Positions 2,305-40,491 are shown, counted from the first letter of the stretch. The stretch: DNA of 64,000 nt from an uncultured Acidobacteriota bacterium (GCA_963725075.1 CAVRXA010000003.1:2485-66484); one strand, 5' to 3'. The notes: generated from the letters alone by a model not told the origin. Translations and numbers: made by a program.

Positions 2305-3259
2305 ATGCGATACATCGAGATAACCGACATCGAGCAGCCCGTTTCGGTCCTCGGTCTGGGCACCACTTCCACGATCTTCACACCTGCCGGAGATGACCGG
2401 GTTGCCGAGCTCATCGACGCCTACCTCGCCGCTCGGCGGGAACTGCATCGACACCGCCCACATCTATGGGTTCGGCGAGAGCGAGAAAGCTCTTGGCCGG
2501 TGGCTAGAGCAATCGGGTCGACGTGATGACATCCTTCTGATTACCAAGGGCTGCCACCCACGCGTAGACGAGGCCGGGCGGTTTGGTCCGCCACGCGTCA
2601 CGCCCGAAGCGATCCACACCGACCTGACCGAGAGCCTGGAGAGACTTGGGATCGATCACGTCGATCTGTACCTGCTGCACCGGGACGACGAGACGGTGCC
2701 TCCCGGCCCGCTCCTGGAGGCGCTCAACGAGGAGAAGGCGAGCGGCCGGATCAGGGCGTTCGGTGCCTCCAACTGGACGGTCAAACGGCTCGACGAGGCC
2801 AACCAGTATGCCGCCGAGCATGGGCTCGCCGGGTTTGCCGCGTCCTCGCCGGGTCTGAGCCTGCCCCGCCCGGTCGCCATGCAGTTTCCCGGCACGTTGT
2901 TCGCCGACGACGACACCCGCCGCTGGCATGCCGAGACCCGGCTGCCGGTGTTCGCCTGGACCTCGCTGGCGGCCGGATTCGCCAGCGGTCGGTTTCGACC
3001 CGATGACACGGATGTGGACGAGAGCACCAGGGCCTTCTTCTCCGAGGACAACTTCGAGCGGATGCGGCGGGCACAGGAGGTGGCCGAGAGACGGAACGCA
3101 TCGGCTCTGCAGGTCGCCCTCGCCTTCGTCCTGGGTCAGGAGTTCCCGGTTGTCGCCCTCGTCGGCCCTTCCCGGGTCGAGAATCTGCATGGCACGCTGG
3201 GCGCGCTCGACGTCGACCTGACCCCAGACGAAATGCGCTACCTCGATCTAGAGACCTAG
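2305..3259 (+). CDS. Aldo/keto reductase (frameshift ~2425)
   Basis: VSVLGLGT, then IDTAHIYGFGESE, ITKG, SLERLGIDHVDLYLLHRDD, FGASNW. Confidence 0.88.
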
Positions 3260-4263
3260 CGGCGGCGCCCCTCGCGCCTGCTCCCGACAGTGGCCTTCGG
3301 CACTGAGGCGTCGAGCCGATCGCGGATCTCGTCGAAGCTCGGACGCTCATCGGCCACGAAGCCATCGACCGCTTCCCGGATTGCGGCGGTGTGGTCTGGA
3401 GTCGACCCGCAACACGCTCCCACGATCCTCGCCCCCGAGCGCAGGGCCAGCTCCACGTAGTCGGCCATTCCGTCCGGACCGATCGGGTAGGTCAGACCGC
3501 CTTCGGTTTGATAGAGCGGAATCCCGCAGTTGGCCTTGGTGATGGTCACCGCCTCGGGCGCGACCTCGCCCAGGGCATGTGCCGTGGCAACCGCGTCTCC
3601 GGGGCCGATGCCGCAGTTGGCGCCGATGGCGGCGACCTCTGAGTGCCCTAACCACCACCGCCCGAAGTCCCGGGGATGGATGCCCATCATGGTGTGGCCG
3701 GCTGTGTCGAAGCTCAGAGTGGCGGCGATCGGGAGACCGGTTCCGGCCGCGGCCTCGACCGCCGCGTTGAGCTCCTCGTACGAGGAGATGGTCTCGATCC
3801 AGATCACGTCCGCTCCGGCCTCTGCCAGCGCCTCGCACTGTTCTGTGAACACCTCGACGCCGCGCTGATGGGACAGGGTGCCCAGCGGCTCGAACAGCTC
3901 ACCGGTGGGCCCGACGCTCCCCGCGATCGCAACCGGACGATCGGCAAGGTCTGCGGCCCGCCTCGCCACCGCGACCCCGGCATGGTTCAGCTCGGCCACA
4001 CGGTCCCCGAGTTTGTGGAGGTCGAGACGAAGCCGGTTGCCCCCGAAGGTGTTGGTCAAGACGATGTCGGCGCCGGCCTCGATGAACCTGCGATGGACCT
4101 TCTCGACGAGGTCGCTTTCTTCGATGTTGAGCAACTCGGGGCAGCCTCCGCCTTCGAGGCCGAGTGAGAAGAGCGTTGTCCCCATTGCCCCATCGGCTAC
4201 CAGGTAGGGGTTGGCAGCGAGCAGATCGGTGAAAACTGTTCTTGCAGCGTCTTGATGGGCCAT
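3256..4263 (-). CDS. bmt: Stand-alone homocysteine S-methyltransferase domain (Bmt-like; Hcy-binding module of a split B12-dependent methionine synthase)
   Basis: DGAMGT, AGADIVLTNTFG, GSVGPTG, GANC and VGACCG Zn ligands; 335 aa with no pterin or B12 domain. Confidence 0.85.
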   Translation of the reverse strand: MAHQDAARTVFTDLLAANPYLVADGAMGTTLFSLGLEGGGCPELLNIEESDLVEKVHRRFIEAGADIVLTNTFGGNRLRLDLHKLGDRVAELNHAGVAVARRAADLADRPVAIAGSVGPTGELFEPLGTLSHQRGVEVFTEQCEALAEAGADVIWIETISSYEELNAAVEAAAGTGLPIAATLSFDTAGHTMMGIHPRDFGRWWLGHSEVAAIGANCGIGPGDAVATAHALGEVAPEAVTITKANCGIPLYQTEGGLTYPIGPDGMADYVELALRSGARIVGACCGSTPDHTAAIREAVDGFVADERPSFDEIRDRLDASVPKATVGSRREGRRR

Positions 4264-4332
4264 CTCCGTCTCCTGTTGTGAAGGCGGCCCTCAAACGAGG
4301 GAACCGCCGCAGCGAGTGCCGGGCGGTTCTTC

Positions 4333-4393
4333 CATCCCGACGCTTTAGCCGCATTTCTTGAGCGCCCGCAAGCTGTGGATCAAATCGGCGCTT
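4333..4393 (-). ncRNA. SAM-II (SAM_alpha)-like riboswitch
   Basis: Minus strand AGCGC-CGAUUUGAUCCACAGCUUGCG-GGCGCU-CAAGAAAUGCGGCUAAAGCGUCGGGAU has the SAM-II hallmarks (P1 stem, GAUUU, UUGC, GCUAAA) and lies upstream of a methionine-synthesis gene. Confidence 0.8.
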
Positions 4394-4428
4394 TCAAGGG
4401 AGGATACGCAAGTTGACGTCAGCTGACA

Positions 4429-4458
4429 AGGAAGACGGCCCCGGAGGGCCGTCTTCCT
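4429..4458 (-). terminator. Intrinsic terminator-like hairpin after the substrate-binding protein gene
   Basis: AGGAAGACGGCCC-CGGA-GGGCCGTCTTCCT perfect 13-bp stem, about 19 nt past the stop at 4477. Confidence 0.7.
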
Positions 4459-4476
4459 CGAACGTCACCGATGCGA

Positions 4477-5470
4477 TTACTGGTCTGCCAGCCAGGCTGA
4501 CCAGACGTCCTCGTTGTCTGCAATCCACTGGGCGGCGACGTCGGCGGCCTCTTCGCCGTCGATCTCGACCGCGGGCAGCATGCCGAGCTGGTCCTCGGTA
4601 GTGATGGTGAACTTCTCCAGGAAGGACTGCACGTTCGGAGCCTTCTCTGCGAGTTGGGCCGAGGCGTACTTGGTGAGCACGTCCTCGGGGTAGTCACAGT
4701 CGATGGCGGCCGGGTCCGCGTAGCAGTCCTCGTTGTATTCGGGGAGAAGGACGTTGACCAGGTCGTAGGCGGCTACGGCCGCAGTCGGGGTCCACCAGTA
4801 CATGAGGATGGGCTCCTCGGCGGCGAATCGAGTGTCGAGCTCGGCGACTGTGGAGGCCTCGCTCCCTGAGAAGACGACCTGGAACGGCAGCTCGAGGTTG
4901 GCGATGATCGCCTCGTCGTACTGGGAGTAAGAGGGGTCGGTCCCCAGGAAGCGACCGTTCTCACCGGTCTCCGCGGTGGCGAACATTGCCGCCACCTCCG
5001 GATCGGCGTAACCCTCCCAGGTGGCCAATTCGGGGTTCGCGTCGATCACGTACTGCGGGGTGAACCAGCCGATCTTGCCGATTGCCCCCAACTCGCCAAT
5101 ATCGACAACGCTGCCGTCGTCGATGATACGCCTGCTCTTCCTCGACCACGCCAGAGGGCCAGACCTCGAGCACTGCGTCCAGCGAGCCGTCCGAGAGCCC
5201 GGTGAACATGGTGTTCTCGTCGATGGCGACGATCTCGACCGGGTTGCCCAGCTCCGCCTCGATCAATTGGGCGGCGATCTCGGCGTTGAGCGCCGAAGCG
5301 GTCCACGCATTCGCCACGATGTTGATGGTTTCCCCTTCTCCACCTGCCGCTGCGGTGGTGTCGGCGCCGCCGTCGGCGGCTGCCTCGGTCGTTGCGGTTC
5401 CGCCGTCGTCACCACATGCGGCCAACAGCAGCGCCATGGCCGATATCAGGATCCAGATTCGCTTTTTCAT
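4477..5470 (-). CDS. Glycine betaine/proline-type ABC substrate-binding lipoprotein (ProX/OpuAC family; frameshift ~5125)
   Basis: Lipobox LLAAC, T/A-rich linker, NAWTAS, LEVWP, GWFTPQY, YWWTP; two overlapping ORFs join. Confidence 0.88.
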
Positions 5471-5552
5471 GGTTCTCCTAGGGCCCGCGGCCGACGATCG
5501 CGGCCGGAAAGGGCCGCTGGTACATTACCGACGTGGCTGTCACGAAGGGGCT

Positions 5553-6576
5553 GTGACCGGCGACGTATGCCTGTCGGTCGAGCACATCTGGAAAGTCTTT
5601 GGTGCTAAGCCCGACAAGGCAATCGAGATGGCCGGTAGCGGCGCATCCCGCGAGGAGGTGCAGCAGGCGACCGACTGCACCATCGGCGTGCGCGATGTCA
5701 CCTTCGACGTGGGCCGCGGGAGAGACCTTCGTCGTCATGGGCCTGTCCGGCTCGGGCAAGTCGACCCTCATCCGTTGTGTTTCCCGTCTCAACGACGTGA
5801 CACGGGGCAAGGTCCTTCTCGACGGCGAGGACCTGACCGCGATGAGCGTCGACCAGTTACGGGACGTCCGCAGACACAAGATGTCGATGGTCTTCCAGCA
5901 TTTCGGCCTGTTCCCACATCGACGGGTGATCGACAACGCCGCCTACGGGCTCGAAGTCCAGGGTGTCGACAAGGCCGAGCGTTACGAGCGGGCGACGAAG
6001 GTGCTCGAGGTCGTCGGCCTCAAGGGATGGGAGCAGAGCTTTCCCCAGCAGCTGTCCGGCGGCATGCAGCAGCGCGTCGGGTTGGCCCGAGCGTTGACGG
6101 TGGACCCCGAGATCATGTTCTTCGATGAGCCATTCTCCGCCCTGGATCCCCTCATCCGACGTGACATGCAGGACGAGCTCATCAGGCTCCAGGAGACTCT
6201 GCAGAGAACGATCGTCTTCATCACCCACGACTTCTCCGAGGCCATAAAGCTCGGCGATCGCATCGCCATCATGAAGGACGGAGGGTTCGATCAGGTGGGC
6301 ACCGCGACGGAGCTGATCAGCGATCCCGCCACTGACTACGTGCGGGAATTCACCAAGGAGATCCCCAAGGCCAAGGTGCTTACCACGGCCGCCGTGCTCA
6401 AAGAGGGTACGGGCGCACCCAACGGCCGGACGGTGCAGCTCGACGACACCATCGAGACGGTGCTGCCGGCGCTGCTCGACGACGACGCCGATATCTGGGT
6501 AGAGGACCCGGACGGGAAGCAAGTCGGGGTGGTGGATCGTCGGGCGGTGGCCAAGGCCATCGAGCCGGAGAGATGA
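5553..6576 (+). CDS. proV: Glycine betaine ABC transporter ATP-binding subunit (ProV/OpuAA; frameshift ~5715)
   Basis: HIWKVFG N-terminus; FVVMGLSGSGKST, MVFQHFGLFPH, LSGGMQQRVGLARAL, DEPFSALDPLIR. Confidence 0.92.
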
Positions 6577-8507
6577 CCGACGTCCTCCAGCCCTCTGATG
6601 TGGCCCTTGCCGAGGAGGGAGCGGGGCGGTTCAGGATCCGGGCATGGTGGATCGTCGGCATTGTCGGCATCATCCTGCTTCAGGTCCTTGTCACCTCGCC
6701 CACGTTCCCCGCCCTATGGGACACATACATCTCGGAGCCGGTCGATCAGTTCTCAGCATGGCTTCGGGAGAACCGCCAGCTCCATCCCGCCTTCACCGGG
6801 TTCTTTCATCCCCTTCTCCGCTGCGGTCGACTGGGGTCTCAGGACGGTTGAGTCGTTCCTTCTCTGGCTTCCCTGGTTCGTCCTCCCCATGGCGGTGTTC
6901 CTCGTCATCTTCAGGACCGGGGATTGGAAGACCGCCCTCGTGGCCCTCGCCGCGGTCCTCTATCCCGGTCTGATCGGTCTCTGGGACCACCACCATGGAG
7001 ACGCTCTCTCTGATGACCATCGCCGTCGTGATCGCGTTGGCCATCGGGATCCCCTTGGGCGTGTGGGCGGCCCGCTCGGCGCGGGTCGATCGCGCGATCA
7101 AACCAGTCCTCGACGCGATGCAGACGATCCCCGCTCCGGTCTACTTCATCCCCATGGTCCTCCTGTTCGGCATCCGACGGGTGCCGGCCACGATCGCCAC
7201 GGTCATCTACTCCCTGCCCCCTGCAGTGAGACTGACCACTCTCGGCATCCAAGGCGTTCCCCGTCCGTCGGTGGAGGCGGCCGAGATGTACGGGTCCACC
7301 GGGCGGCAGACGCTGTTCAAGGTGCAGCTGCCGATGGCGATGCCCTTCATCATGACCGGGGTCAATCAGACGATCATGATGGCTCTGGGCATCGTGGTGC
7401 TGGCCACACTCCTCGGCGCCGGCGGACTGGGTCAGGAGGTGCTCCAAGCTTTGAACCAGCGGCGCACCGGACGCGGTCCTGGCCGCGGGCCTCGCCATCG
7501 TGGCGGTGGCGATGGTTCTGGACCGAGTTGGACGGTCGCTCGCCTTCGCCGACAGGACCCGACCTGCTTCGCGGCGCTACGTGATCACCGCGCTGGCGTT
7601 GGTCCTGGGGGGGATCGTGGTGGGGCGTGTCATGGGCTGGGTCGAGTTCCCGGCGGTATGGGAGGTCAGGGTCTTCGATCCGGTCGACACCTTCGTGCGC
7701 TGGGGACGGGACAACCTCTCCTTCATCACCCGCCCGGTGAACGATTTCATCGTGGCGGGGCTGCTCATCCCCGCCCGCGACTTTCTCATCGTCACTGTGG
7801 CCTGGCCGGTGCTCATCGCCGTCGACCGCCATCCTCTGCTGGAGGCTGAAGGGGGTGGGTCTGGCGATCTTCGCCGGGGCAGCCCTCCTCATGGTCGGGC
7901 TGATCGGGATGTGGGAGCTGTCATTGGGGACCCTGGTCCAGGTGCTGGCGGCGGCTCTCATATCGGTTGCCATCGCCATCCCCGTGGGGATCTGGGCCGG
8001 TCGAAGCCCGAGGGTCGAGAAGGTGCTGACCCCGTTCCTCGACGCCCTCCAGACCATCCCCTCGTTCGTGTTCATCATCCCGGTGATCCTCTTCTTCACC
8101 GTTGGCCAGGTCCCCGGCATCATCGCCGCAGTCCTCTACGCCATCGTCCCCGGCATCCGGATCACCGCGCTCGGCATCAAGGAGGTCCCCGAGGAGAGCG
8201 TCGAGGCATCCGAGACTTTCGGGGCCACCCGGCGGCAAACGATGTTCGGGGTGAGGATCCCCCTCGCCGCTCCAACCATCCTGGCTGCGGTCAACCAGGT
8301 GATCATGATGGTCCTCGCCATGGTGATCATCGCCGGGCTGGTCGGGGGTGGAGCACTCGGTTACGAGACGGTCAAGGCATTGACACCGCGGCGAGACCGG
8401 TCTCGGGTATCGAGGTCGGATTCGCCATCGTGGTGATGGCGATCATCCTCGACCGGGTCACCCAGGCATGGGCGGCCAGGCTCCAGCCACCGACTCCTGC
8501 CCCCTGA
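6573..8507 (+). CDS. proW: Glycine betaine ABC permease with two fused ProW domains (several frameshifts)
   Basis: Two copies of LDAxQTIP / EA(A/S)ExxG / VNQxIMMxL spread over successive frames. Confidence 0.82.
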
Positions 8508-8532
8508 CCTGCCACTACTACCGTCCCGAAAC

Positions 8533-9993
8533 ATGAGTCTCGACACCCAGCAGCTCTATATCGGCGGCACCCGGGTGGACGCCGTTTCGGGGGAGACCTT
8601 CGCCACGATCAACCCCGCCACCGGTGAGGAGATCTGTCAGGTCCAGCATGCCGGGACCGCTGATGTCGACCGGGCCGTGGCGTCATCGCGGGAGGGATTC
8701 GAGGTCTGGCGTCAGATGTCGGGAGCGGAACGGGGCCGGATCCTCAACCGGGCTGCGGGTCTCCTTCGGGACAACAACGAGGAGCTGGCCCGGCTCGAGG
8801 TGCTCGACACCGGCAAGCCGATCCAGGAGGCGATCGCCGTCGACGTCCTGTCCGGCGCCGACGCCGTCGAGTACTACGCCGGCCTGGCCGCGAGCATCCA
8901 CGGTGAGACCTTCGATCTGGGCAGTGCCTGGGCCTACACCCGTCGCGAGCCCCTCGGGGTTTGCGTCGGGATCGGAGCCTGGAACTACCCGATCCAGATC
9001 GCCTGCTGGAAGTCAGCCCCGGCCCTCGCCTGTGGCAATTCGATGGTGTTCAAGCCCGCCGAGCTCACACCGCTCACTGCGCTGAGACTTGCCGAGATCT
9101 ACACCAAGGCCGGGCTCCCGGATGGGGTGTTCAACGTCGTTCAGGGTGATCACCGCACCGGGGAGGCGCTCGTGGCTCATCCCGACGTCGCCAAGGTGTC
9201 GCTGACCGGCGAGGTGGGCACCGGGAAGATCGTCATGGCCAACGCCGCCGCCACCCTCAAGCACGTGACCCTGGAGCTGGGGGGGAAGAGCCCGCTGATC
9301 ATCTTCGACGACGCCGATCTCGACAATGCAGTCTCCGCCGCCCTGATGGCCAACTTCTACACCCAGGGCGAGATCTGCTCCAACGGGACCAGGGTCTACG
9401 TCCACGAGGAGATCCACGACGAGTTCCTCGACCGTCTGGTCACCCGGACCTCGAAGATGAAGATCGGCGACCCGATGGATCCCGACACCCATGTCGGGGC
9501 GCTCATCTCGCGTGAGCACATGGACAAGGTTCTCTCCTACATCGAGGCAGGGAAGACGGCCGGGGCAACCGTCGTCATCGGTGGGGACCGTCCTTCCGAC
9601 CCCTCGTTGGAGGGTGGCTATTTCGTCGAGCCGACCGTGTTCGATGCCTGCACCGACGACATGTCGATCGTCCAGGAGGAGATCTTTGGGCCGGTCATGG
9701 CGGTGCTCAGCTTCAGGGACGAGGACGATGTCATCGCCCGGGCCAACGACACGCCGTACGGGCTGGCGGCGGGTGTTTTCACCAAGGACATCCAGCGCGC
9801 CCACCGGGTGGTGGCCCGGCTCGAGGCGGGGACGACCTGGATCAACAACTACAACATCACCCCGATCGAGATGCCATTCGGCGGCTACAAGCAGTCCGGG
9901 ATCGGCCGGGAGAACAGCCTGGTCACCATCAACCACTACACCCAGGTCAAGAGCGTGTACGTGGAGATGGGCGACGTCGAGGCGCCGTACTAG
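8533..9993 (+). CDS. betB: Betaine aldehyde dehydrogenase
   Basis: [59 protein letters not shown]; betaine transporter context. Confidence 0.92.
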
Positions 9994-10012
9994 GTAGGAA
10001 TCCGAGAGGGAG

Positions 10013-10852
10013 GTGAGGAAAGTGGCTGATCGCTTCCTGGCGGGCAGGACCGCCATGGTGACGGGCGGGGCATCGGGGATGGGGCTGGCAATGGCTCAGG
10101 CGTTTGCGTCGGAGGGTGCCAACGTCAGCATCGGGTCCCTCCTCTCTGCCGGTTCGAAGACCGAAGGTGAAGTGGTCCACATCCCGGGTCAGGAGCAGAT
10201 GGAACACGCCATCTCGGTCATCGAGGGGGAAGGGGTGGAGTGTCTCGGCCTCGACCTCGACGTCACCTCGGACGATTCCGTCGAGGCGTTTCACCAGGCG
10301 ACGGTGGACCGGTTCGGCCCGGTCGACATCCTGGCCAACGCAGCCGGCATCACCGCCGAGCAGACCATCGTCGGACACCCGGACGCACTGTGGGACAAGG
10401 TGATCGACGTCAATCTCACCGGCACCTACCGGGCGATCAAGCGGGTGCTCCCCGGGATGATCGAGAGAGAGTGGGGCCGGATCATCAACATCGCCTCCAC
10501 CGCGGCGTCGGTGGGTGCGGTCACTTCGGGCGCCTATTGCGCATCCAAGGCCGGGGTCGTCGGACTGACCAGATGTGTCGCTCTCGAGGGTGCCCCGCAC
10601 GGGGTCACTTGCAACGCGATCAGCCCGACCTGGGTCGATACCTCATTCGGCCGGGAGTGGATGTCCGACATCGCCGAGAAACAGGAGCATCGGTCCGGGG
10701 AGGAGTACATCTCCGACGTGGAGAAGACCAATCCCCAGGGTCGTCTCATTTCCCCGACCGAGATCGGCGCCCTGGCCCTCTTCCTGTGTAGCGACGGGGC
10801 CAGGGGGGTCACCATGGAGGATCTGCGCGTCTCGGCCGGATCGCTCTGGTAG
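10013..10852 (+). CDS. Short-chain dehydrogenase/reductase (3-hydroxybutyrate dehydrogenase-like)
   Basis: TGGASGMG, NAAGI, NIASTA, YCASK, NAISPTWV. Confidence 0.88.
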   Translation: MRKVADRFLAGRTAMVTGGASGMGLAMAQAFASEGANVSIGSLLSAGSKTEGEVVHIPGQEQMEHAISVIEGEGVECLGLDLDVTSDDSVEAFHQATVDRFGPVDILANAAGITAEQTIVGHPDALWDKVIDVNLTGTYRAIKRVLPGMIEREWGRIINIASTAASVGAVTSGAYCASKAGVVGLTRCVALEGAPHGVTCNAISPTWVDTSFGREWMSDIAEKQEHRSGEEYISDVEKTNPQGRLISPTEIGALALFLCSDGARGVTMEDLRVSAGSLW

Positions 10853-10906
10853 ACAGACAGCGAAATTGAGAGCCACGATGCCACATGTGACACCTCTAGC
10901 TCCCAA

Positions 10907-15116: not shown

Positions 15117-15185
15117 GTCTGAAAACCTCGTTCTCCGGTCAGGTCAATCATGGCCCACCATGGACCCTGGTGGGGCGGCAGACTA

Positions 15186-15224
15186 GTGTTCCAACATATA
15201 GCACAGCCCCGCATCGTGGAACAC
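15186..15224. promoter_or_regulatory. Putative IclR-family operator 1 in the divergent promoter region
   Basis: GTGTTCCA-N23-TGGAACAC; same arms and spacing as the site at 19765-19801. Confidence 0.65.
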
Positions 15225-15252
15225 CTCTGAAGACACGGTGTGACGACATGGA

Positions 15253-16568: not shown

Positions 16569-16890
16569 GTCCCAAAGAGATCGACACCGCGACCGGGGAC
16601 CACAGCTGACCGTCATCCGCTGGCGGGAGATCCCCGCCCAGGTGCTCGCCCGCCGGGGCGACGAGACCGCCAAACGCGAGCTGTCGGCCAGGTTCCAGGT
16701 CGCCATCGACCGTGCCGCCATGTACGCAGGTCTGTTCGGGACCGACGAGTACCTGTCGGAATGGGCCAAGGACACGAGGCCGTGCGGGGACGACCTCGAG
16801 GCCGAAGTCGCCGACGAAGCGGCGCGTTTGGAGACCGAATACGACTCCGAGACTTTGAACGATCTCGCCGCCAACGGGGGGACGCGATGA
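16565..16890 (+). CDS. Small 'virulence factor' domain protein (PF13769-like); probable indel near the start
   Basis: VIRWREIPAQV...LSARFQVAIDRAAM...YLSEW; GTG at 16565 overlaps the upstream stop but is out of frame with the body. Confidence 0.7.
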
Positions 16891-17783
16891 CCGACACCGT
16901 CGTCTCCTCGGAGACCCGAGAAGTCGTGATTGGCTTCGAACGTCCCTTCGTCCTGATCGGGGAGAGAATCAATCCAACCGGACGTCGGCTCCTCGCCGAG
17001 GAGATGAAGAACGGCGACTTCTCGCGGGTGGAGACTGACGCCTTGAGTCAGGTTGGCGCCGGGGCGCAGATGCTCGATGTCAACGCCGGCATCCCCCTCG
17101 CCGACGAGCCCGCACTTCTGGCCAGGGCCGTCGAACTGGTCCAGTCGTTGACCGATGTCCCCTTGTCCATCGACTCGTCGATCGTCGCCGCCCTCGAATC
17201 CGGGCTCCTCGCCTATCGGGGGAAGGCCCTGGTCAACTCGGTCACAGGGGAGGAGGAGCGTCTCGAACAGGTGCTTCCTCTCATCGCAAAGCACGGGGCG
17301 GCCGTGGTGGCGATCTCCAACGACGAGACCGGGATCTCCGAGGATCCCGATGTCCGGTTCGAGGTGGCCAAGAAGATCGTCGGACGGGCCGCCGATCACG
17401 GCATTCCCCGGGAAGACATCGTGGTCGATCCATTGGTGATGCCGATCGGCGCGATTTCAACCGCCGGGAGACAGGTGTTCCACCTCATCCGGAGGCTGCG
17501 CGATGAGTTGGGGGTCAACACCACCTGTGGGGCGTCCAACATCAGCTTCGGGCTCCCCAACCGGGCCGGGATCAATGCCGCCTTCCTGGCCATGGCGATC
17601 GGTGCCGGCATGACATCGGCGATAACCAACCCGCTCGAGGCCGAGATTCGCCAATCGATCATGGCCGCCGATGTCTTGAACGGCCGTGACCCCAATTGCG
17701 CCACCTGGATCAAGACTTATCGGGAGCCACCCGCCGCCGGCGAGGAGGGCCGTCGCCGTGAGAACCGCCGCCGTCGCGGCTGA
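16887..17783 (+). CDS. Methyltetrahydrofolate:corrinoid methyltransferase (pterin-binding domain)
   Basis: LIGERINPTGR, LDVNAG, LSIDS, VNSVTGE, DPLV, GASNISFGLP. Confidence 0.92.
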   Translation: MTDTVVSSETREVVIGFERPFVLIGERINPTGRRLLAEEMKNGDFSRVETDALSQVGAGAQMLDVNAGIPLADEPALLARAVELVQSLTDVPLSIDSSIVAALESGLLAYRGKALVNSVTGEEERLEQVLPLIAKHGAAVVAISNDETGISEDPDVRFEVAKKIVGRAADHGIPREDIVVDPLVMPIGAISTAGRQVFHLIRRLRDELGVNTTCGASNISFGLPNRAGINAAFLAMAIGAGMTSAITNPLEAEIRQSIMAADVLNGRDPNCATWIKTYREPPAAGEEGRRRENRRRRG

Positions 17784-17789
17784 CCGGCC

Positions 17790-19742
17790 GTGACGCGTCA
17801 GGTGGTGTTCAGCCCTTCGGGGCGACGCGGGGCGTTTCCCGAGGGCACCACAGTCCTGGACGCCGCCCGGGCCCTGGGAGTCGACCTCGACTCGGTATGC
17901 GGCGGCAGGGGGATCTGCGGACGCTGCCAGGTGGTCATCGGGAGCCGACCAGGCGTCGAGGCCCGCCCTGACCGTCTATCCGAGCCCGGTCCCACCGAGA
18001 CCGACTATCAGGGCCGGCGACCGCTGGACGCCGGCCACCGTCTCGGTTGTGCTGCCCGGATCGTGGACGACGTCGTCATCGATGTCCCGGCGGACAGCCA
18101 GGTCCATCGCCAGGTCGTGCGCAAGCGGGCAGGTGTGGCCGCCCTGCCGGTCGATCCCGTCGTCCGGCTCCATTACGTCGAGGTTCCCGAGCCCGATCTG
18201 GCCAGCCCGACCGGAGACCTGGAGCGTCTCCTCGCCGCTCTCGAACAGGAGTGGGGTCTGAGCGGACTGGTGGTGGACCCGCCGGTCCTGCATGATCTCC
18301 AGCCGACCCTGCGTCGGGGCGACTGGGCGGTGACGGTGGCGGTGCGTCATGCCCGGGATCTGATCGGGATCTGGCCCGGCTTCCGTGATCTCGCCCTCGG
18401 GGTGGCCTTCGACGTCGGCTCGACCACCATTGCCGGCCATCTCTGCGATCTGCTGACCGGGGCGGTTCTCGCTACGAGTGGCGTGATGAATCCCCAGATC
18501 GGGTTTGGTGAGGATCTGATGAGCCGTGTCTCGTACGTGATGATGAACGATGACGGGGCCGCACGCCTCACCGATGTGGTGCGAGGCGCCCTCGACGACT
18601 TGCTCGGGGAATTGGTCACCGACGCCGGGGTGGAGCGGGACGACGTCCTCGAGCTCAGCCTGGTGGGCAACCCGATCATGCACCACCTGGTCCTCGGGCT
18701 CGACCCGCGGGAGTTGGGCACCGCTCCATTTGCTCTGGTAACCACCTCGGCCCTCGACACCCCCGCTTCCGACCTCGGGCTGCAGGCCCACCGTGGTGCC
18801 CGGGTGTATTCGCTTCCCTGCATCGCCGGTCATGTCGGCGCCGACGCGGCCGGGGCAGTGTTGTCCGAGGGCCCACACCGCGGTGATGCGCTTCAGTTGC
18901 TCGTCGACGTGGGGACGAACGCCGAGTTGGTGCTGGGGAACAAGGACCGCCTGCTGGCCGCGTCCAGCCCGACCGGGCCTGCGTTCGAAGGTGCGCAGAT
19001 CTCCTCAGGGCAGCGTGCGGCGCCGGGGGCGATCGAGCGGGTCAGAGTCGACCGCTCGACTCTCGACCCCCGTTTCTCTGTCATCGGCCAGGAGATGTGG
19101 TCGGACGAGCCCGGCTTCGACAGCGGTGCCGTCACCGGGATCTGCGGGTCGGGGATCATCGAGGCGATAGCCGAGCTGCATCTGGCCGGAGTGATCGACA
19201 CCGACGGGGTGATCCGCCCACCGGCCCATCCTTCGTCACGAGTGGTGGCGTCGGACCGAACCTTCTCCTACGTCTTATGTGCCGAGCCTCTGATAGAGGT
19301 GACACAGAACGACGTGAGGGCCGTCCAACTGGCCAAGGCGGCGCTTCACGCCGGGGCCCGACTCCTGATGGACCATTACGGCATCGACCAGGTCGACGAG
19401 ATCAGGCTGGCCGGTGCCTTCGGAAGCCACATCGATCCCCTGTACGCAATGGTGCTGGGGATGATCCCCGACTGCGACCTCGAGCGAGTCTCGGCGGCCG
19501 GGAACGCTGCCGGGGTCGGGGCGATGATGGCCCTTCTCTCGGGTGTGGCGCGTACCGAGATCGAGGAGGTGGCCCGGCAGATCGTGAAGGTGGAGACCGC
19601 GGTCGAGCCACGATTCCAGGAGCATTTCGTGGCTGCTCTCGCCATACCCCACAAGACCGACCCCTACCCGCTCCTCTCCAAGGTGGTGGACCTGCCACCT
19701 AGGCCCGAGCCAGGGGAGCGGCGGCGGAGACGCTCGGAATGA
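17790..19742 (+). CDS. ATP-dependent corrinoid reductive activator (RamA/RACo-like; 2Fe-2S + ASKHA)
   Basis: CGGRGICGRC..C ferredoxin; DVGSTT, GEDLMSR, VDVGTNAE, GPAFEG, GICGSG, AGAFG. Confidence 0.9.
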   Translation: MTRQVVFSPSGRRGAFPEGTTVLDAARALGVDLDSVCGGRGICGRCQVVIGSRPGVEARPDRLSEPGPTETDYQGRRPLDAGHRLGCAARIVDDVVIDVPADSQVHRQVVRKRAGVAALPVDPVVRLHYVEVPEPDLASPTGDLERLLAALEQEWGLSGLVVDPPVLHDLQPTLRRGDWAVTVAVRHARDLIGIWPGFRDLALGVAFDVGSTTIAGHLCDLLTGAVLATSGVMNPQIGFGEDLMSRVSYVMMNDDGAARLTDVVRGALDDLLGELVTDAGVERDDVLELSLVGNPIMHHLVLGLDPRELGTAPFALVTTSALDTPASDLGLQAHRGARVYSLPCIAGHVGADAAGAVLSEGPHRGDALQLLVDVGTNAELVLGNKDRLLAASSPTGPAFEGAQISSGQRAAPGAIERVRVDRSTLDPRFSVIGQEMWSDEPGFDSGAVTGICGSGIIEAIAELHLAGVIDTDGVIRPPAHPSSRVVASDRTFSYVLCAEPLIEVTQNDVRAVQLAKAALHAGARLLMDHYGIDQVDEIRLAGAFGSHIDPLYAMVLGMIPDCDLERVSAAGNAAGVGAMMALLSGVARTEIEEVARQIVKVETAVEPRFQEHFVAALAIPHKTDPYPLLSKVVDLPPRPEPGERRRRRSE

Positions 19743-19763
19743 GGCTCTGCCCCTTCCCGGCTC

Positions 19764-19802
19764 CTGTTCCATGATGTAGTCTGGTACCGCATCATGGAAC
19801 AG
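19764..19802. promoter_or_regulatory. Putative IclR-family operator 2 overlapping the mttB-like start
   Basis: 13-bp perfect inverted repeat CTGTTCCATGATG...CATCATGGAACAG enclosing a TAGTCT -10-like hexamer. Confidence 0.65.
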
Positions 19803-21332
19803 ACCAGCACGGGACGTCGGGGCGGTGGCCGCGCCGCCCGGCAGGCGGCGAGGACCGCTCGGGCCATCGAGTCAGTGCCGTTCCTCACCCGCAAGCTGAC
19901 ACCGGTCGAGGTGCTCGATGAGGAAGGGCTCTCGCTGATCGAGTCCAATGCAGACCTGCTCCTCGAGAGAGTCGGCATCGAGGTGGGCAACTTCCCCGAG
20001 GCGTTGGAGATCTTCCGTGACGGTGGATGTGAGGTCACCGACACCCGGGTCAGATTCCCTGCCGGGCTGGCCAGGAGCCTCATGGCGACTGCGCCGTCGA
20101 CCTTCACCCAACACGCCCGCAACCCCGAGCACGACGTTGTGATCGGCGACCCCCATCTCGTCTTCGCCCCGGCCTACGGGTCCCCGTTCGTCCGTGACCT
20201 GGAAGGAGGTCGTCGCTACGCCACCCTCGCCGACTTCGAGAACTTCGCCCGTCTGACCCACATGACCCCTGCCCTGCATCACGGCGGCGGGACCCTGTGC
20301 GAGCCGGTCGACCTGCCGGTCAACAAACGGCATTTCGACATGGTCCTGGCCCACATCAAGAACCACGATCGGGCGTTCATGGGCTCTGTCACCGCCCCCG
20401 AGCGGGCCCAGGACACGGTCGACATGGTCAGGATCCTGTTCGGTGGAGACATCGACCAGGGGAAGACGGTCCTTTTGTCTCTGTGCAACGCCAACAGCCC
20501 GATGAGCTGGGACTACAACATGCTCGGCTCGGCCAAGGTCTACGCCGAGAACAACCAGGCGTGTCTCATCACCCCCTTCATCCTCTCCGGGGCGATGGCG
20601 CCGGTCACCGTGGCCGGGACCGCAACCCAGACCCTCGCTGAGGCGATGGCCGGCATGGCGTTCTGCCAGTTGGTGCGACCCGGTGCGCCTGTTGTGTTCG
20701 GGTCCTTCGCTTCCTCGATCTCGATGCAGTCAGGTGCTCCCACGTTCGGCACCCCCGAGCCGGCAATGGTGCTTTTCGTGATGGCAGCCCTGGCCCGGCG
20801 ACTCGGTGTCCCCTTCCGCAGCGGGGGGAATCTCACCGCGGCGAAGACTCCTGACTACCAGGCGGCCTATGAATCGGCCGCCACCTTCCTTCCCACTCTT
20901 CTCGCCGGGGTCAATTTCGTGCTCCACACCGCCGGCTGGCTGGAGGGAGGGCTGGTCATGGGGTATGAGAAGTTCGTCCTGGACGCGGATCAGGCATCGA
21001 TGGCCGAGGCCCTGGTCGGGGGTCTGGACCTCTCGGATAACGGTCAGGCACTCGACGCCCTCCTCGACAATCCGCCCGGACAGCATTTCCTGGGGAACCC
21101 CCACACCCTGGCCAACTTCGAGAACGCCTTCTGGCGCAGCGCCACCGCGGACAACAACAGCTTCGAGCAATGGCTGGAGGCGGGATCCCAGGAGGCCGCC
21201 TCGAGGGCGCACACCATCTGGCGCAAGATGCTGACCGAGTACGAGCCGCCGCCCCTGGATGAGGCCGTCGAGGCGGAGTTGACCGAGTGGGTGGCGCAGC
21301 GCAAGGCCTCTTTCCCGGACTCGGATGTCTGA
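19794..21332 (+). CDS. Trimethylamine methyltransferase (MttB) superfamily, non-pyrrolysine (MtgB-like quaternary amine:corrinoid methyltransferase)
   Basis: APAYGSPFV, CEPVDLP, NANSP, GAPTFGTPE, RSGG, HTAGWLEGG; no in-frame TAG. Confidence 0.9.
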   Translation: MEQTSTGRRGGGRAARQAARTARAIESVPFLTRKLTPVEVLDEEGLSLIESNADLLLERVGIEVGNFPEALEIFRDGGCEVTDTRVRFPAGLARSLMATAPSTFTQHARNPEHDVVIGDPHLVFAPAYGSPFVRDLEGGRRYATLADFENFARLTHMTPALHHGGGTLCEPVDLPVNKRHFDMVLAHIKNHDRAFMGSVTAPERAQDTVDMVRILFGGDIDQGKTVLLSLCNANSPMSWDYNMLGSAKVYAENNQACLITPFILSGAMAPVTVAGTATQTLAEAMAGMAFCQLVRPGAPVVFGSFASSISMQSGAPTFGTPEPAMVLFVMAALARRLGVPFRSGGNLTAAKTPDYQAAYESAATFLPTLLAGVNFVLHTAGWLEGGLVMGYEKFVLDADQASMAEALVGGLDLSDNGQALDALLDNPPGQHFLGNPHTLANFENAFWRSATADNNSFEQWLEAGSQEAASRAHTIWRKMLTEYEPPPLDEAVEAELTEWVAQRKASFPDSDV

Positions 21333-21334
21333 GC

Positions 21335-22156
21335 ATGAGTGACGTCCTGGAACGAGCTCTCCTCACCGGGGCCGACTTCGAGGTGATACCCCTCGACGGC
21401 GTGCTGGACAAGGCATCTTCGATCGAGCCGGGCTCGACGGTCTCAGTGACCGCCTCGCCCACCCGGGGGATGAGCCCCACCCTGGATCTGGCCATCGAGC
21501 TCCAGACCCGGGGCCATCGGGCGGTGCCCCACCTGTCGGCCAGGACGATCGAGAACCGCCGCGACCTGGCTTCGATCATCAAGCGTCTGGACGACGGAGG
21601 GGTGGGACAGGTCTTCGTCACCGGGGGTGATGGACCGCCACAGGGTGACTACTACGACGCGCTCTCGCTGCTCGAAGACATGGCGGCGGTCGGTCATCCC
21701 TTCCTCGAAGTCGGGATCACCGGGTATCCCGAGGGCCACCCGGCCATCTCACCCGGCCGTCTCCGCCAATCACTGCTCGAAAAGCAGTCGCTTGCGACGT
21801 ATGTCGTCACGCAGATGTGTTTCAGCCCGGAGACGATCGTTGAATGGATCACCTCCATCCGGGCCGATGGCGTGACCCTCCCCGTCAAGGTCGGGGTGCC
21901 CGGTGCGGTCGATCCCACCCGTCTCCTCAGCATCGGGGCGCGAATCGGCGTGGGTGAATCGATGAGGTTCCTCGCCAAGAACCGTGGCTCGATCCTCGGG
22001 ATGCTGCGTCCGGGCCGGTACCAGCCCGACAGGATCATCGGACGGCTCGCCCGTCTCGGCGAGGACCTGGGGATGACCGGCATCCACATCTTCACTTTCA
22101 ACCAGGTCGAGCCCACGGTCGCCTGGCACCGCAAGGCGCTGTCGAGGGTGACCTGA
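21335..22156 (+). CDS. metF: Methylenetetrahydrofolate reductase (MetF-like)
   Basis: VPHLSAR, GYPEGHP, VTQMCF, HIFTFN; ATG at 21335. Confidence 0.85.
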   Translation: MSDVLERALLTGADFEVIPLDGVLDKASSIEPGSTVSVTASPTRGMSPTLDLAIELQTRGHRAVPHLSARTIENRRDLASIIKRLDDGGVGQVFVTGGDGPPQGDYYDALSLLEDMAAVGHPFLEVGITGYPEGHPAISPGRLRQSLLEKQSLATYVVTQMCFSPETIVEWITSIRADGVTLPVKVGVPGAVDPTRLLSIGARIGVGESMRFLAKNRGSILGMLRPGRYQPDRIIGRLARLGEDLGMTGIHIFTFNQVEPTVAWHRKALSRVT

Positions 22157-22902
22157 TGGCGGTGCAGTCGATCGATCGCGCATTCCAGGTGCTCAAGGCG
22201 TTGGCAGTGGAGCCCTCGGGTGTGACCGAGCTCGCCTCCCGGGTCGGTCTGCCCAAGTCGACCGTGGCCAGGATGCTGTCGAGCCTCGAAGACCAGGGCG
22301 CGGTGACCAGGGGGCCGGACGGCACCTCGTATGCGATTGGCATCGGGCTGGTCGAGATTGCCGGCGCTATCGATGCCACTGCAGCGCTCGCCACCGCGGT
22401 CCGCCCACATCTGGTCTGGCTGTCCGATCAGCTCGGTGAGGCCGCCGGCTTCAGCATCCCGACCGGATACACCATCCAGTACATGGTGCAGGTGGAGAGC
22501 CCAAACCCCGTCCAGGTCCGTGACTACACCGGTCTGATGGTGCCGATGCATATCGGCCCCTCCGGTCTCTGCGTGATGGCGCAATGGCCGGCCGAGGAGG
22601 TCGATCGCTACCTGAGCCGTCCACTCGAGGCGTACACGTCGCACACGGTGGTGGATTCCGGCGAGATCCGGGCAAGGCTGGAAGCGATCCGGGGCTCGGG
22701 CCATTGCTGGATCCGTGAGGAATTCGCCGAGGGGATCAACTCGGTGGCGGCTCCGGTGCTGGCCGACGGAAAGCGTGCCCTCGGCGCAATCCACGTCCAC
22801 GGCCCGGCCTACAGGTTCCCGGCTGATGGACGAGCCGACTCCATCGCCTCGCTCGTGATGGATGCCGCGGCCCGCTTCTCCAGTCGATCCGACACCGTGT
22901 GA
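22156..22902 (+). CDS. IclR family transcriptional regulator
   Basis: VQSIDRAFQVL..GVTELA..GLPKSTVARML HTH; SVAAPV C-terminal effector domain. Confidence 0.93.
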   Translation: MAVQSIDRAFQVLKALAVEPSGVTELASRVGLPKSTVARMLSSLEDQGAVTRGPDGTSYAIGIGLVEIAGAIDATAALATAVRPHLVWLSDQLGEAAGFSIPTGYTIQYMVQVESPNPVQVRDYTGLMVPMHIGPSGLCVMAQWPAEEVDRYLSRPLEAYTSHTVVDSGEIRARLEAIRGSGHCWIREEFAEGINSVAAPVLADGKRALGAIHVHGPAYRFPADGRADSIASLVMDAAARFSSRSDTV

Positions 22903-22962
22903 AGCCAGTGAGCTGAAGCACTGGCACCGAATACTCGCCCGGTCGATGAGCATCTTGAAGCG

Positions 22963-22994
22963 ATGGCATGACAGTGGCATGATTAGCGCATGCC
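22963..22994 (+). promoter_or_regulatory. Possible TA autoregulatory operator
   Basis: TGGCATGA direct repeat twice plus a GGCATG...CATGCC inverted repeat over the antitoxin start. Confidence 0.45.
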
Positions 22995-23226
22995 AAGAGT
23001 GAGAGTGAGTACGACCGTCGACGAAGGGTTGATCCAAAGCGCCAGACGGCTTCGAGCACCATTGAACGACGCGGCGATCCTGGATGAGGCCCTGGCTGCT
23101 CTGCTCACCCGCCATCGAGAAGCCGAGATCGACCGCAGTTACGCCGTTTATGACCAGCATCCACTGGACGAGCCCGACGATTGGGGGGATCTGGCGTCGT
23201 TCCGCAAGGGCGCGGCAGCCTCATGA
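22990..23226 (+). CDS. mazE: Type II antitoxin (MazE5-like)
   Basis: RVSTTVD...[28 protein letters not shown], recalled as resembling M. tuberculosis MazE5; ATGA overlap with the toxin. Confidence 0.8.
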
Positions 23227-23552
23227 CAGGAGTGCCCGCAAGGGGGGAGGTCTGGTGGTGCGAGTTGCCTGAGATCTCACGGCGCCCTGTAGTGGTTCTC
23301 TCCCGTGATGCAGCCATTCCGAGACTCCGGCGCGCACTGGTGGCGCCTTGCACCACCAATGTGCGCGGACTGGCGAGCGAAGTGGTGCTCGAGCCGGGCG
23401 AGGACCCGGTGCCACGACGATCTGCGGTCAACCTCGACTCGGTCGAGAGCGTCTCTGTCGGTGTCCTCGTGGAGCGCGTCGGTCGTCTCAGCGACGACCG
23501 AATGCGCGAGATCTGCGCGGCGCTGGCGATCGCGGTCGCCTGCGGTCCCTGA
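23223..23552 (+). CDS. mazF: PemK/MazF family endoribonuclease toxin (MazF5-like)
   Basis: RGEVWW...RRPVVVLS...VAPCTT...NLDSV...GRL. Confidence 0.92.
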
Positions 23553-23623
23553 TCGATCGCAAGCAAGCCGGCACCCCCTTCCCCTAAGGTTGAACCACCG
23601 TTCAGGATTCGAGGAGGACAGCG

Positions 23624-24802
23624 GTGGCCAACGAACGTCGCGAGATGCTGGAGAAGAGCACCACGCTCTATTTCGGCCCCTGGTACCGGAGATCGCCCTT
23701 CTTCGAGTCGACGCTTGCCGCCGGCTGCTCCTCCTACGACATCTACAACCACATGTACCTGCCCGCCTACTACGACGACCCCGACGTGGAGTACTGGGCG
23801 CTGGTGAACGGGGTCACGATGTGGGACGTAGGTGTCGAGCGAACGGTCGAAGTAAGCGGGAAAGATGCCGACCGGCTGATCGACTACATCACGTGCCGGG
23901 ACCTGACCAAGTGCGCCGTCGGCCAGGGGAAGTACATGCCGGTCATCGCTCCCGACGGCGGGATCGTGAACGACCCGGTCCTGCTTCACGTCGGCGAGAA
24001 CCGGTGGTGGATGCAGCTGGCCGACTCCGATGCCGGGCTGTACGCCCTCGGCGTGGCGGCCGGCCGCTTCGATGCGGACGTCACTCTGCCGGACGTGCAC
24101 CCGATGCAGGTGCAGGGACCACTGGCAGCCAAGACCCTGGAGAAGCTGGTCGGGGCCGGCATCTACGACATCAAGTACTACTGGCTGGGCGAGTTCGAGA
24201 TCGATGGGATCCCGGTCGTGATCAGCCGCACCGGGTGGACCGCCATCCCCGGGTTCGAGATCAACGTCCTCGATCGGCGTGATGGCACCGCCCTCTGGGA
24301 CGCGGTGGCGGCCGCGGGCGAGGAGTTCGACATCCGCCCCATTGCCCCATGTGAGGCGCGCCGGATCGAGGCCGGGATCTTCAACTACGGGTCCGACATG
24401 ACCCTCGATGACACTCCGTTTCATCTCAGCGGCATGGAGCGTCTGGTGGAGTCGCAGGACCAGGACTACCTGGGGAAGGCGGCGTTGGAAAGCATCCGGG
24501 AGACAGGGGTCGACCGCAAGCTCGTCGGGATGTTCCTCGAAGGCGACCAGTTGCGGGCCGAGCTGTCACAGCCCTGGCCGGTGCTCTTGATGGAGATCGA
24601 GGTCGGTCGGGTCACCGACGCGGTTTGGTCGCCCGGGCTGGAGCGGAACATCGGGTACATGTGGGTCCCGATCGAGCTGCTCGACCACGGGACCCGGGTC
24701 GAGGTCGTGACCGAGGACGGTGAGGAGCTGACCGCGGTCGCGGCGAGCCTGCCCTTCGTCGACCCGCAGAAGAAGGTGCCGGCCAAGAGCCTCAGCGTCT
24801 GA
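23624..24802 (+). CDS. GcvT-family THF-dependent methyltransferase, DmdA (DMSP demethylase)-like
   Basis: YNHMYLP, WDVGVERTVEVSGKD, TCRDL, VNDPVLL, WWMQLADSD, VQGP, SRTGW, RIEAG..NYG.D. Confidence 0.8.
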   Translation: MANERREMLEKSTTLYFGPWYRRSPFFESTLAAGCSSYDIYNHMYLPAYYDDPDVEYWALVNGVTMWDVGVERTVEVSGKDADRLIDYITCRDLTKCAVGQGKYMPVIAPDGGIVNDPVLLHVGENRWWMQLADSDAGLYALGVAAGRFDADVTLPDVHPMQVQGPLAAKTLEKLVGAGIYDIKYYWLGEFEIDGIPVVISRTGWTAIPGFEINVLDRRDGTALWDAVAAAGEEFDIRPIAPCEARRIEAGIFNYGSDMTLDDTPFHLSGMERLVESQDQDYLGKAALESIRETGVDRKLVGMFLEGDQLRAELSQPWPVLLMEIEVGRVTDAVWSPGLERNIGYMWVPIELLDHGTRVEVVTEDGEELTAVAASLPFVDPQKKVPAKSLSV

Positions 24803-34292: not shown

Positions 34293-34298
34293 GCCGGG

Positions 34299-34316: not shown

Positions 34317-34324
34317 GGTGCCGG

Positions 34325-40481: not shown

Positions 40482-40491
40482 GTCTGTGGTT

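Follow-up and report, generated by a model that had tools for sequence, protein, structure and literature searches.

Gene content and organization of the cluster

The subject of this analysis is a gene cluster at positions 3256-24802 of a 64-kb stretch of DNA (G000:C3:2485-66484, the whole of which is called the window below). The host is a soil actinobacterium of the Acidimicrobiia (Actinomycetota), represented by a metagenome-assembled genome (MAG) of 2.89 Mb in 26 contigs (G000). The cluster is one 21-kb stretch that runs from the gene for a homocysteine methyltransferase module, MtgE, to a gene of the GcvT/DmdA family. GC content is about 65% across the window, and the cluster shows no compositional break. 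Genes were picked by third-position GC and then scanned with Pfam and NCBIfam profiles, which found all eleven of the components listed for this region in a preliminary description of the DNA, together with a DUF1638 protein and a short-chain dehydrogenase/reductase (SDR) that were absent from its list. Judged by homology and gene context, the region is most likely the Acidimicrobiia version of MtgBCDE, the cobamide-dependent glycine-betaine demethylase/split methionine synthase of aerobes, packed together with genes for the conversion of choline and betaine to sarcosine; the cluster may possibly carry this conversion beyond sarcosine to glycine.

The genes from mtgC to an IclR-family regulator (15253-22902, plus strand) form one operon. 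MtgC (15253..15960), the corrinoid hub protein, is a stand-alone protein with Pfam B12-binding_2 and B12-binding domains and a DIHDIG motif (DxHxxG) at residues 114-119. It is 75% identical to the corresponding protein of a Sinorhizobium meliloti cluster (considered at the end) and 37% identical to the B12 domain of the genome's own methionine synthase, MetH. Its best NCBIfam match is the model named "glycine betaine-specific corrinoid protein MtgC", at 209.7 bits against a cut-off of 370. The DUF1638 protein (15957..16568; 94 bits) follows, and then MtgD (16761..17783; Pfam Pterin_bind), a stand-alone corrinoid methyltransferase for methyl-tetrahydrofolate (methyl-THF), which passes NCBIfam NF005719 with 362.7 bits against 259 and whose start is likely Met43, at 16887. 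The next gene encodes a reductive activase (17790..19742; Pfam Fer2, RACo_linker, Raco_middle and RACo_C_ter). This is the protein previously called "RamA-like"; it is indeed present, although more exactly it is of RACo/AcsV type, and its N-terminal 2Fe-2S domain carries four cysteines. MtgB (19794..21332), a non-pyrrolysine methyltransferase of the MttB family (Pfam MTTB, PF06253, 712 bits), is followed by MetF2 (21335..22156), which resembles a methylene-THF reductase (MTHFR) and matches Pfam MTHFR at a weak 38 bits, and by the IclR-family regulator (22156..22902; Pfam HTH_IclR and IclR_C).

MtgE lies at the other end of the cluster, on the minus strand (3256..4263; Pfam S-methyl_trans, 212 bits), and is a homocysteine S-methyltransferase module of the kind annotated as Bhmt or Bmt. 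It passes the NCBIfam equivalog NF005718, "betaine--homocysteine S-methyltransferase", with 376.8 bits against a cut-off of 338, and on that measure is a separate protein for homocysteine binding, of the S. meliloti "Bhmt" type. Its zinc-site cysteines, by comparison with MetH and BHMT, would be Cys217 or Cys246 together with the pair Cys284-Cys285.

Between mtgE and the operon are genes for uptake and oxidation. An OpuAC-type betaine binding protein with a lipoprotein-like N-terminus (4477..5524, minus strand; Pfam OpuAC, 96.8 bits on the C-terminal piece) is followed on the plus strand by an OpuAA/ProV-like ABC ATPase (5553..6576; Pfam ABC_tran) and a fused double permease (6573..8507) whose two ProW-like halves are 48% identical to each other. 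Betaine-aldehyde dehydrogenase, BetB (8533..9993, plus strand), passes both of its NCBIfam equivalogs (NF009725, 818.5 bits against 593; TIGR01804, 709.1 against 668.6). The SDR (10013..10852, plus strand; Pfam adh_short_C2) is below every NCBIfam cut-off among the best 25 of its 212 matches, the top one being a 3-hydroxybutyrate dehydrogenase subfamily at 214 bits against 258. It adjoins BetB in each of the five same-genus loci long enough to include it. It could be an alcohol-oxidizing step ahead of BetB. The sole GMC oxidoreductase (BetA-like) found in the genome is on contig C7. On the minus strand are EtfB and EtfA (10907..12612; Pfam ETF and ETF_alpha), a second electron transfer flavoprotein (ETF) dedicated to the cluster, with an ETF of housekeeping type elsewhere on contig C26, and a flavoprotein of 835 amino acids (12609..15116; Pfam DAO, FAO_M, GCV_T and GCV_T_C) with the architecture of dimethylglycine dehydrogenase (DMGDH), of dimethylglycine/sarcosine dehydrogenase type.

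MtgB and its likely substrate

The MtgB frame is open, has no internal stop and is the sole MttB gene in the genome. Against solved structures it scores 658 bits for 4yyc, 400 bits for MtgB of Desulfitobacterium hafniense (2qne and 9yce) and 132 bits for the pyrrolysine trimethylamine methyltransferase MttB (7xcl). Entry 4yyc is probably the MttB protein of the S. meliloti cluster. Identity as a pyrrolysine trimethylamine methyltransferase was considered and rejected on the lack of an internal stop, on a TIGR02369 score of 266 against a cut-off of 525, and on the low score with 7xcl. Genes of this sort are routinely labeled "trimethylamine methyltransferase".

Both structures, 2qne and 9yce, are of D. 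hafniense MtgB, and 9yce has betaine in the site. There the quaternary amine is contacted by Y97 and F356 and the carboxylate by R312 and H348 (PMC13080624). After correction for an offset of 16 between the numbering of 2qne and that of the native protein, confirmed on three residues, three of these four contacts are kept in the window protein (Y97 as Y128, R312 as R342 and H348 as H378). The fourth, F356, aligns with Gly386, so the protein was not placed in a strict glycine-betaine-specific subgroup of the D. hafniense type. The earlier view that the substrate cannot be read with certainty from sequence is correct.

A wider comparison is nevertheless informative. In a set of 201 MtgB orthologues (80 cross-phylum loci described below, 120 database relatives and S. 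meliloti), Y128, R342, H378 and W382 are invariant. Thirteen paralogues were compared at these columns, of which one was unreadable; position 128 is alanine or glycine in all 12 others. Nine of them, at 37-43% identity and from related genomes, retain the arginine, histidine and tryptophan and have lost only the tyrosine, and three at 26-27% identity retain none of the four residues. Glycine betaine is the most likely substrate of MtgB, because of this pattern at Y128 and because BetB, the OpuAC protein and an adjacent DMGDH-type gene accompany it.

MetF2 and the GcvT-family protein

The preliminary description called the product of the gene after mtgB "MetF-like". An MTHFR-like gene is certainly there, although a narrower name fits better: the best solved relative of MetF2 is 7xg9, at 118 bits, as against 29 bits for ordinary MTHFRs. 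Structure 7xg9 is S6MTHFR of Sphingobium lignivorans SYK-6, an enzyme that oxidizes methyl-THF, hardly uses NADH, and defines the "type 4" MTHFRs, which are coupled to demethylases that make methyl-THF, such as LigM, DesA, CmuAB and Dmt (PMC11868366). MetF2 keeps the catalytic residues E21 (as E32), D107 (D115) and Q175 (Q176) of S6MTHFR and two of its four S6-specific ones, P49 (P58) and F269 (F271), and is better described as an S6MTHFR-like, putative methyl-THF oxidizer. It also occupies the same logical place, directly after a system that would make methyl-THF, and its gene comes after mtgB in all 15 related loci examined. The two differ in their partners, which for MetF2 would be a corrinoid-dependent system and for S6MTHFR are THF-dependent demethylases (PMC11868366).

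The last gene of the cluster (23624..24802, plus strand; Pfam GCV_T and GCV_T_C) encodes a putative THF-dependent demethylase of the GcvT/DmdA family, which as such would also feed MetF2. The closest model is that of DmdA, the dimethylsulfoniopropionate (DMSP) demethylase, and the best solved relative is 3tfh (219 bits). Structure 3tfh is the DmdA of Pelagibacter. The protein scores 311.7 bits against a cut-off of 410 for NF009133, and was not assigned to DmdA on this count; the part of the preliminary description that announced DMSP demethylation is thus not upheld. A gene of this family follows the IclR gene in all four same-genus downstream stretches and in none of four from other genera, and is present also at the two nearest loci of the 80-locus cross-phylum set.

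Two small overlapping open reading frames (ORFs) at 22990-23552 (plus strand) separate the IclR gene from the DmdA-like gene and form a toxin-antitoxin pair. The second, of 109 amino acids, is a PemK/MazF-type toxin (59.6 bits), and the first, of 78 amino acids and with no Pfam match, is presumably the antitoxin. The pair appears to have been inserted in the window, because the flanking genes are only about 75-80 bases apart in the relatives G006, G020 and G008. We also considered whether the cluster has clean island borders, and rejected the idea: neither an aldo-keto reductase (AKR) gene in the flank nor the DmdA-like gene was found (E<=1e-30) in five MtgB-negative genomes of the same genus, so that the variable region extends beyond the cluster. 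No Rfam match at the gathering threshold and no tRNA was found in the 64-kb window when a riboswitch or tRNA was sought at the cluster borders.

Conservation and distribution

All 15 related loci, in which MtgB identity goes down to 65%, have the block MtgC-DUF1638-MtgD-RamA-MtgB-MetF2. A DMGDH-type gene, with ETF, lies beside this core in 13 of the 15, and the remaining two loci end at a contig edge. Five same-genus loci extend far enough to show the complete set from MtgE to IclR, and every one of them has it. At one locus, L016 (G036:C2), an insert of about 8 kb lies between the activase gene and mtgB, and the cluster is otherwise collinear.

Sixty genomes of relatives were surveyed, 30 of them from the same genus, including three unpublished genomes (G019, G028 and G029) that are all MtgB-negative and have MetH and CobS matches. 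The counts of 17 MtgB-negative genomes, of 27 genomes with MetH and of nine with CobS given below rest partly on these three, and since the surveyed genomes are kin, counts of co-occurrence and of CobS are descriptive only. Of the 30 same-genus genomes 13 have MtgB, as do 22 of all 60. Among those 13, twelve have an MtgC-type, eleven an MtgD-type and ten an MtgE-type piece, every genome having at least one of these types. The 17 MtgB-negative genomes of the genus yielded neither an MtgD- nor an MtgE-type piece; two of them have a weak extra match to the B12-binding domain (85-94 bits).

MetH was found in 27 of the 30 genomes of the genus. In other genera of the order, a search for MetH found no match in seven of the eight genomes that have an MtgB orthologue, which follows the pattern reported for marine carriers of the system (PMC12478193).

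When species genomes were scanned, relatives of MtgB turned up in at least 588 stretches. The best 80 of these (62-96% MtgB identity, with flanks of 8 kb or less, many cut by contig ends) make up the cross-phylum set; their titles name Acidimicrobiia, Actinomycetes, Chloroflexota, Limnocylindrales, Methylomirabilota, Verrucomicrobiia, Burkholderiales, Rhodocyclaceae, Woeseiaceae and others. Within 8 kb of mtgB in these 80 loci there is an activase gene in 51, MtgD in 45, MtgC in 43, MetF2 in 42, DUF1638 in 32, IclR in 28 and a DMGDH-like gene in 16. The MtgC proteins of the 43 loci, which span Acidimicrobiia, Actinomycetes, Chloroflexota and Gammaproteobacteria, are 73-97% identical, with the exception of the one in L046 at 49%. 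Eight loci from MAGs of Chloroflexia, Chloroflexota and Limnocylindrales (L050-L053, L056, L057, L061 and L064) encode an MtgB orthologue at 69-71% identity and have no MtgC, MtgD or activase gene within 8 kb, with an ABC ATPase nearby instead; these are a different arrangement of the same enzyme.

Public sequencing runs that contain window sequence carry soil labels. Three RNA runs hold small shares (0.06-0.12) of the sampled window words, which is no evidence either way on expression.

Metabolic context in the host

The host is aerobic as judged by its gene content, with a heme-copper oxidase subunit (COX1) at 514 bits outside the window. The preliminary description, which noted anaerobe-style chemistry in an apparently aerobic host, was to this extent correct, although the Box genes that it cited were not seen among the ORFs scanned at 26-63 kb, which do not include every ORF there. 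Two further COX1-family matches of the same length and nearly equal score (C4:11726-12898, 70.7 bits; C5:11196-12368, 70.5 bits) may reflect duplicated contigs or two strains in the bin.

A full-length MetH is encoded on contig C11 (46852-50247; 1235 bits, in an open frame of 1163 amino acids). Directly beside it is a very divergent MTHFR-like frame (23-26 bits; G000:C11:46074-46664, minus strand), likely the anabolic partner of MetH and separate from MetF2 of the cluster. The genome has only a weak MetE-like gene; in the window, a protein of 371 amino acids (60272-61387, plus strand) has a partial match to Meth_synt_2, the MetE catalytic domain, at 60 bits, and may be a "core-MetE"-like protein of the kind discussed in PMC12478193. 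Because MetH is present as well, the Mtg module in this genus is accessory, and it behaves as an accessory catabolic unit.

No CbiC or CobS match was found in the host genome, which at 88.7% completeness is no proof of absence. Across the genus, CobS was found in three of 13 MtgB-positive genomes as against nine of 17 MtgB-negative ones. The organism likely depends on external cobamide, and that most carriers in the genus lack a CobS match suggests that the turnover of osmolytes in soil goes with a need for cobamides from outside.

Interrupted reading frames

Ten single-base insertions or deletions (indels) break five genes of the cluster as assembled, eight of them in the transporter and two in the ETF. 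The binding protein gene, intact in relatives at 327-339 amino acids, has one extra base near 5125-5127, and the ATPase gene has one near 5717. The permease gene has six extra single bases, near 6804, 6987, 7474, 7822, 8385 and 8404; in three of five relatives the intact permease is a single ORF of 642-645 amino acids. The ETF genes have one indel each, a missing base near 11377 and an extra base near 11996. In an alignment with five same-genus relatives, all ten are unique to this assembly. Third-codon-position GC is high in every fragment, and the fragment proteins are 92-99% identical to those of the relative G020 (L022).

The transporter region (4400-8600) was compared with contigs from four public runs of two studies, all labeled soil metagenome. 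At all eight transporter sites the contigs that cover them drop one base, although in X3 the gap at 6803 is seen only by way of the span. The extra base of the binding protein is missing from contigs of three runs and that of the ATPase from contigs of all four, and one public contig of 247 bases is otherwise identical to the window, yet is without both extra bases at 8385 and 8405. Two of the related genomes that were assembled into few contigs, G020 and G006, have seven unique small indels each, nearly all of them insertions of one base and several within other genes of the cluster; G003 has none.

Because they are missing from both the relatives and the contigs of the public runs, the extra bases in the transporter genes are assembly errors, and the transporter is intact in nature. 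The reading of the transporter as a pseudogene was rejected on comparison with the five relatives and the contigs of the four runs. The two ETF indels are probably errors of the same kind, for which the evidence is that of the relatives, the read contigs having covered 4400-8600. Elsewhere in the window, a P-type ATPase is spread over two overlapping frames (46510-48541, plus strand; E1-E2_ATPase at 46510-48111 and a HAD hydrolase domain at 47573-48541), and is probably split by another single-base assembly error.

Alternative readings

Several observations weigh against the assignment of the cluster to betaine demethylation, or at least temper it. The function proposed is drawn from homology and gene context. 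MtgC falls under the curated cut-offs of both NCBIfam MtgC models. For MtgB, the fourth betaine contact is replaced by Gly386, and W382, four residues upstream, may or may not substitute for it; an identity of about 43% to D. hafniense MtgB leaves the specificity unfixed, and the protein was compared with solved structures and with the residues of paralogues. Two S6MTHFR residues are changed in MetF2 (L48 to S57 and C219 to I220). Five genes (those of the binding protein, ATPase, permease, EtfA and EtfB) fail to read through as assembled. A search of the genome found no ETF:quinone oxidoreductase, and no second DMGDH or sarcosine dehydrogenase paralogue at E<=1e-15; one enzyme may perform both N-demethylations, of dimethylglycine and of sarcosine. 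Finally, the source is a MAG, with the incompleteness given above and 4.9% contamination.

The alternative that we take most seriously, while still considering it unlikely, is that the same machinery is present but MtgB demethylates some other quaternary amine (proline betaine, carnitine, gamma-butyrobetaine, choline or another), with the nearby betaine genes serving only downstream or parallel steps. The loss of the contact at F356 is in its favor, as is the finding that MtcB and MtyB, which are 53% identical, are named for different preferred substrates (PMC8604678). Published alignments also show R312, and less so H348, kept in enzymes for other carboxylated quaternary amines, but MtcB, MtpB, MthB and MtyB do not share the aromatic pair (PMC13080624), whereas the tyrosine of this pair is the very residue that is invariant among the 201 orthologues and replaced in every readable paralogue. 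The neighborhood argues the same way: a dehydrogenase for dimethylglycine, the expected product of betaine demethylation, is next door in 13 of 15 loci, BetB and the OpuAC protein are within the cluster, and the genome has no other MttB gene.

It is much less probable that MtgC, MtgD and MtgE serve mainly as the cell's methionine synthase, a split MetH whose placement near betaine genes is incidental. Parts of the MtgC, MtgD and MtgE type are needed for methionine synthesis in Phaeobacter inhibens and Ruegeria pomeroyi (PMC12478193), and the MtgB carriers without a MetH match in seven of eight genomes from other genera of the order could be read in this sense. The window organism, however, has its own full-length MetH, as do nearly all genomes of its genus, and MtgD- and MtgE-type pieces are confined to the MtgB-positive genomes of the genus, the MtgB-negative ones offering no more than the weak B12-domain match in two. 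Because these pieces are so confined while MetH is widespread, the module tracks MtgB rather than the need for methionine. Least credible of all, and hardly to be entertained, is that the cluster is decaying, with the uptake system and ETF as pseudogenes and the pathway no longer running in this organism. The ten indels in five genes are what such a reading would draw on, but the eight in the transporter are all one-base insertions that five relatives lack and that the public contigs drop site by site, the fragments retain their high third-position GC and their close identity to the proteins of G020, and the distribution of private indels among the assemblies (seven each in G020 and G006, none in G003) fits consensus errors.

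Proposed pathway and its implications

In the pathway that we propose, the OpuA-type ABC system would import betaine or choline, and BetB, perhaps with the adjacent SDR or the GMC oxidoreductase encoded elsewhere, would take choline through betaine aldehyde to glycine betaine. MtgB would then put one methyl group of glycine betaine on the Co(I) of MtgC, leaving dimethylglycine. From methyl-MtgC there would be two exits. By one, MtgD would move the methyl group to THF and MetF2 would oxidize the methyl-THF to methylene-THF; by the other, MtgE would move it to homocysteine, giving methionine. The RamA/RACo protein and DUF1638 would re-reduce MtgC after its oxidation to Co(II). The DMGDH-type flavoprotein would remove the next methyl group or groups onto THF, with electrons passing to the cluster's ETF and on to the aerobic respiratory chain, and the IclR protein probably regulates the cluster.

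The routing of methyl groups through one corrinoid protein, to homocysteine or to THF, had been put forward in the preliminary description; it equals a model already published for R. pomeroyi (PMC12478193), and a homologue of every part of that model is present here. The system is real and complete, but its kind is already in print (September 2025) and the idea of a hub is no longer new. We found no description in print of an MtgBCDE locus in Acidimicrobiia or in soil, although the list of genomes in Dataset S2 of PMC12478193 may include Actinomycetota.

A more specific proposal can be offered only tentatively. In soil Acidimicrobiia that contain MetH and do not make B12, MtgB, MtgC and MtgE together might act as a cobamide-dependent betaine:homocysteine methyltransferase that bypasses folate, and the choline-to-sarcosine module might be an accessory block that is gained or lost as a whole and exchanged between phyla. 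If this is true, betaine turnover in soil, like that in the sea, depends on scavenged cobamides. As a compact set of genes that extends from uptake through dimethylglycine oxidation and includes mtgE and MetF2, the cluster is in any case a handy template for annotation and a convenient set for heterologous reconstitution.

Other features of the window

The region at 33258-46148 encodes a LacI regulator, an FMN-dependent dehydrogenase, a sugar ABC transporter, a class II aldolase-SDR fusion, a xylose-isomerase-like protein, an FGGY kinase and a DeoR regulator. It looks like a cluster for rhamnose-type sugar catabolism, unrelated to the Mtg cluster.

Comparison with known systems

The closest system in domain composition is that of aerobic marine bacteria. 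In R. pomeroyi, MtgB (PF06253) transfers a methyl group of glycine betaine to the corrinoid protein MtgC, MtgD hands it on to THF, a MetF paralogue (MetF2) is the proposed oxidizer, and MtgD acting in reverse together with MtgE makes methionine. Reactivation of the cobalamin is the role proposed for RamA and DUF1638. Mutants in mtgC and mtgD no longer grow on betaine and become methionine auxotrophs (PMC12478193). This arrangement of one corrinoid hub with two exits was stated by Mausz et al. (PNAS, September 2025; PMC12478193). The window has the same separate MtgB, MtgC, MtgD and MtgE, the MetF paralogue, the RamA-type activase and DUF1638 as R. pomeroyi and P. inhibens, the match to R. pomeroyi being part for part by domains, with identities measured against the S. 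meliloti cluster instead. The host is likewise aerobic, the hub of MtgC with two exits is the same as proposed there, and the carriers are seemingly not makers of B12.

There are also clear differences. The window organism is an actinobacterium of the Acidimicrobiia whose sequence occurs in soil-labeled runs, while the genomes described in PMC12478193 are of marine Proteobacteria, Actinomycetota accounting for 5% of the mtgC reads. All parts, mtgE included, are within one 21-kb cluster here, whereas mtgE is usually not near mtgBCD in the marine genomes, and there is a single MttB gene here as against up to seven there (PMC12478193). The window genome also has a classical MetH, so the module is not its only methionine synthase; the methionine auxotrophy that follows loss of mtgC or mtgD in R. 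pomeroyi would not be expected in this organism.

The S. meliloti cluster, taken from record CP090106.1 (a plasmid collection), is discussed in PMC12478193 as having MtgBCDE and reactivation genes. Its activase, MtgD, DUF1638, MtgC, MtgB, bmt and betaine ABC ATPase are all encoded within 20 kb and are 48-75% identical to their counterparts in the window (MtgC 75%, MtgD 64%, MtgB 60%, the activase of the ASKHA family 56%, DUF1638 52% and bmt/MtgE 49%). It differs in having its own ordinary-looking MTHFR and a protein with an MTHFR C-terminal domain, neither of which matches MetF2 of the window (E<=1e-5), and in the stretch shown there is no DMGDH, ETF or BetB.

The MtgABC system of D. hafniense, which carries out anaerobic methyl transfer from glycine betaine to THF, shares the chemistry proposed for the first step. 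Its MtgB is of the same TIM-barrel family (400 bits, about 43% identity) with Y97, R312 and H348 kept, although F356 corresponds to Gly386 in the window protein. Its corrinoid protein comes from another clade than those of the roseobacters, which are also distinct from MetH (PMC12478193), and the window system differs in its aerobic host and in its apparent linkage to homocysteine methylation and to an oxidative MTHFR.

It was not until 2025 that aerobes were shown to demethylate betaine by a B12-dependent route, and then only marine Proteobacteria; the same module is seen here in uncultured Acidimicrobiia. What is particular to the window is the phylum, the soil labels, a complete cluster that includes mtgE, a coexisting MetH, an S6MTHFR-like MetF2, and a likely dependence on external cobamide.

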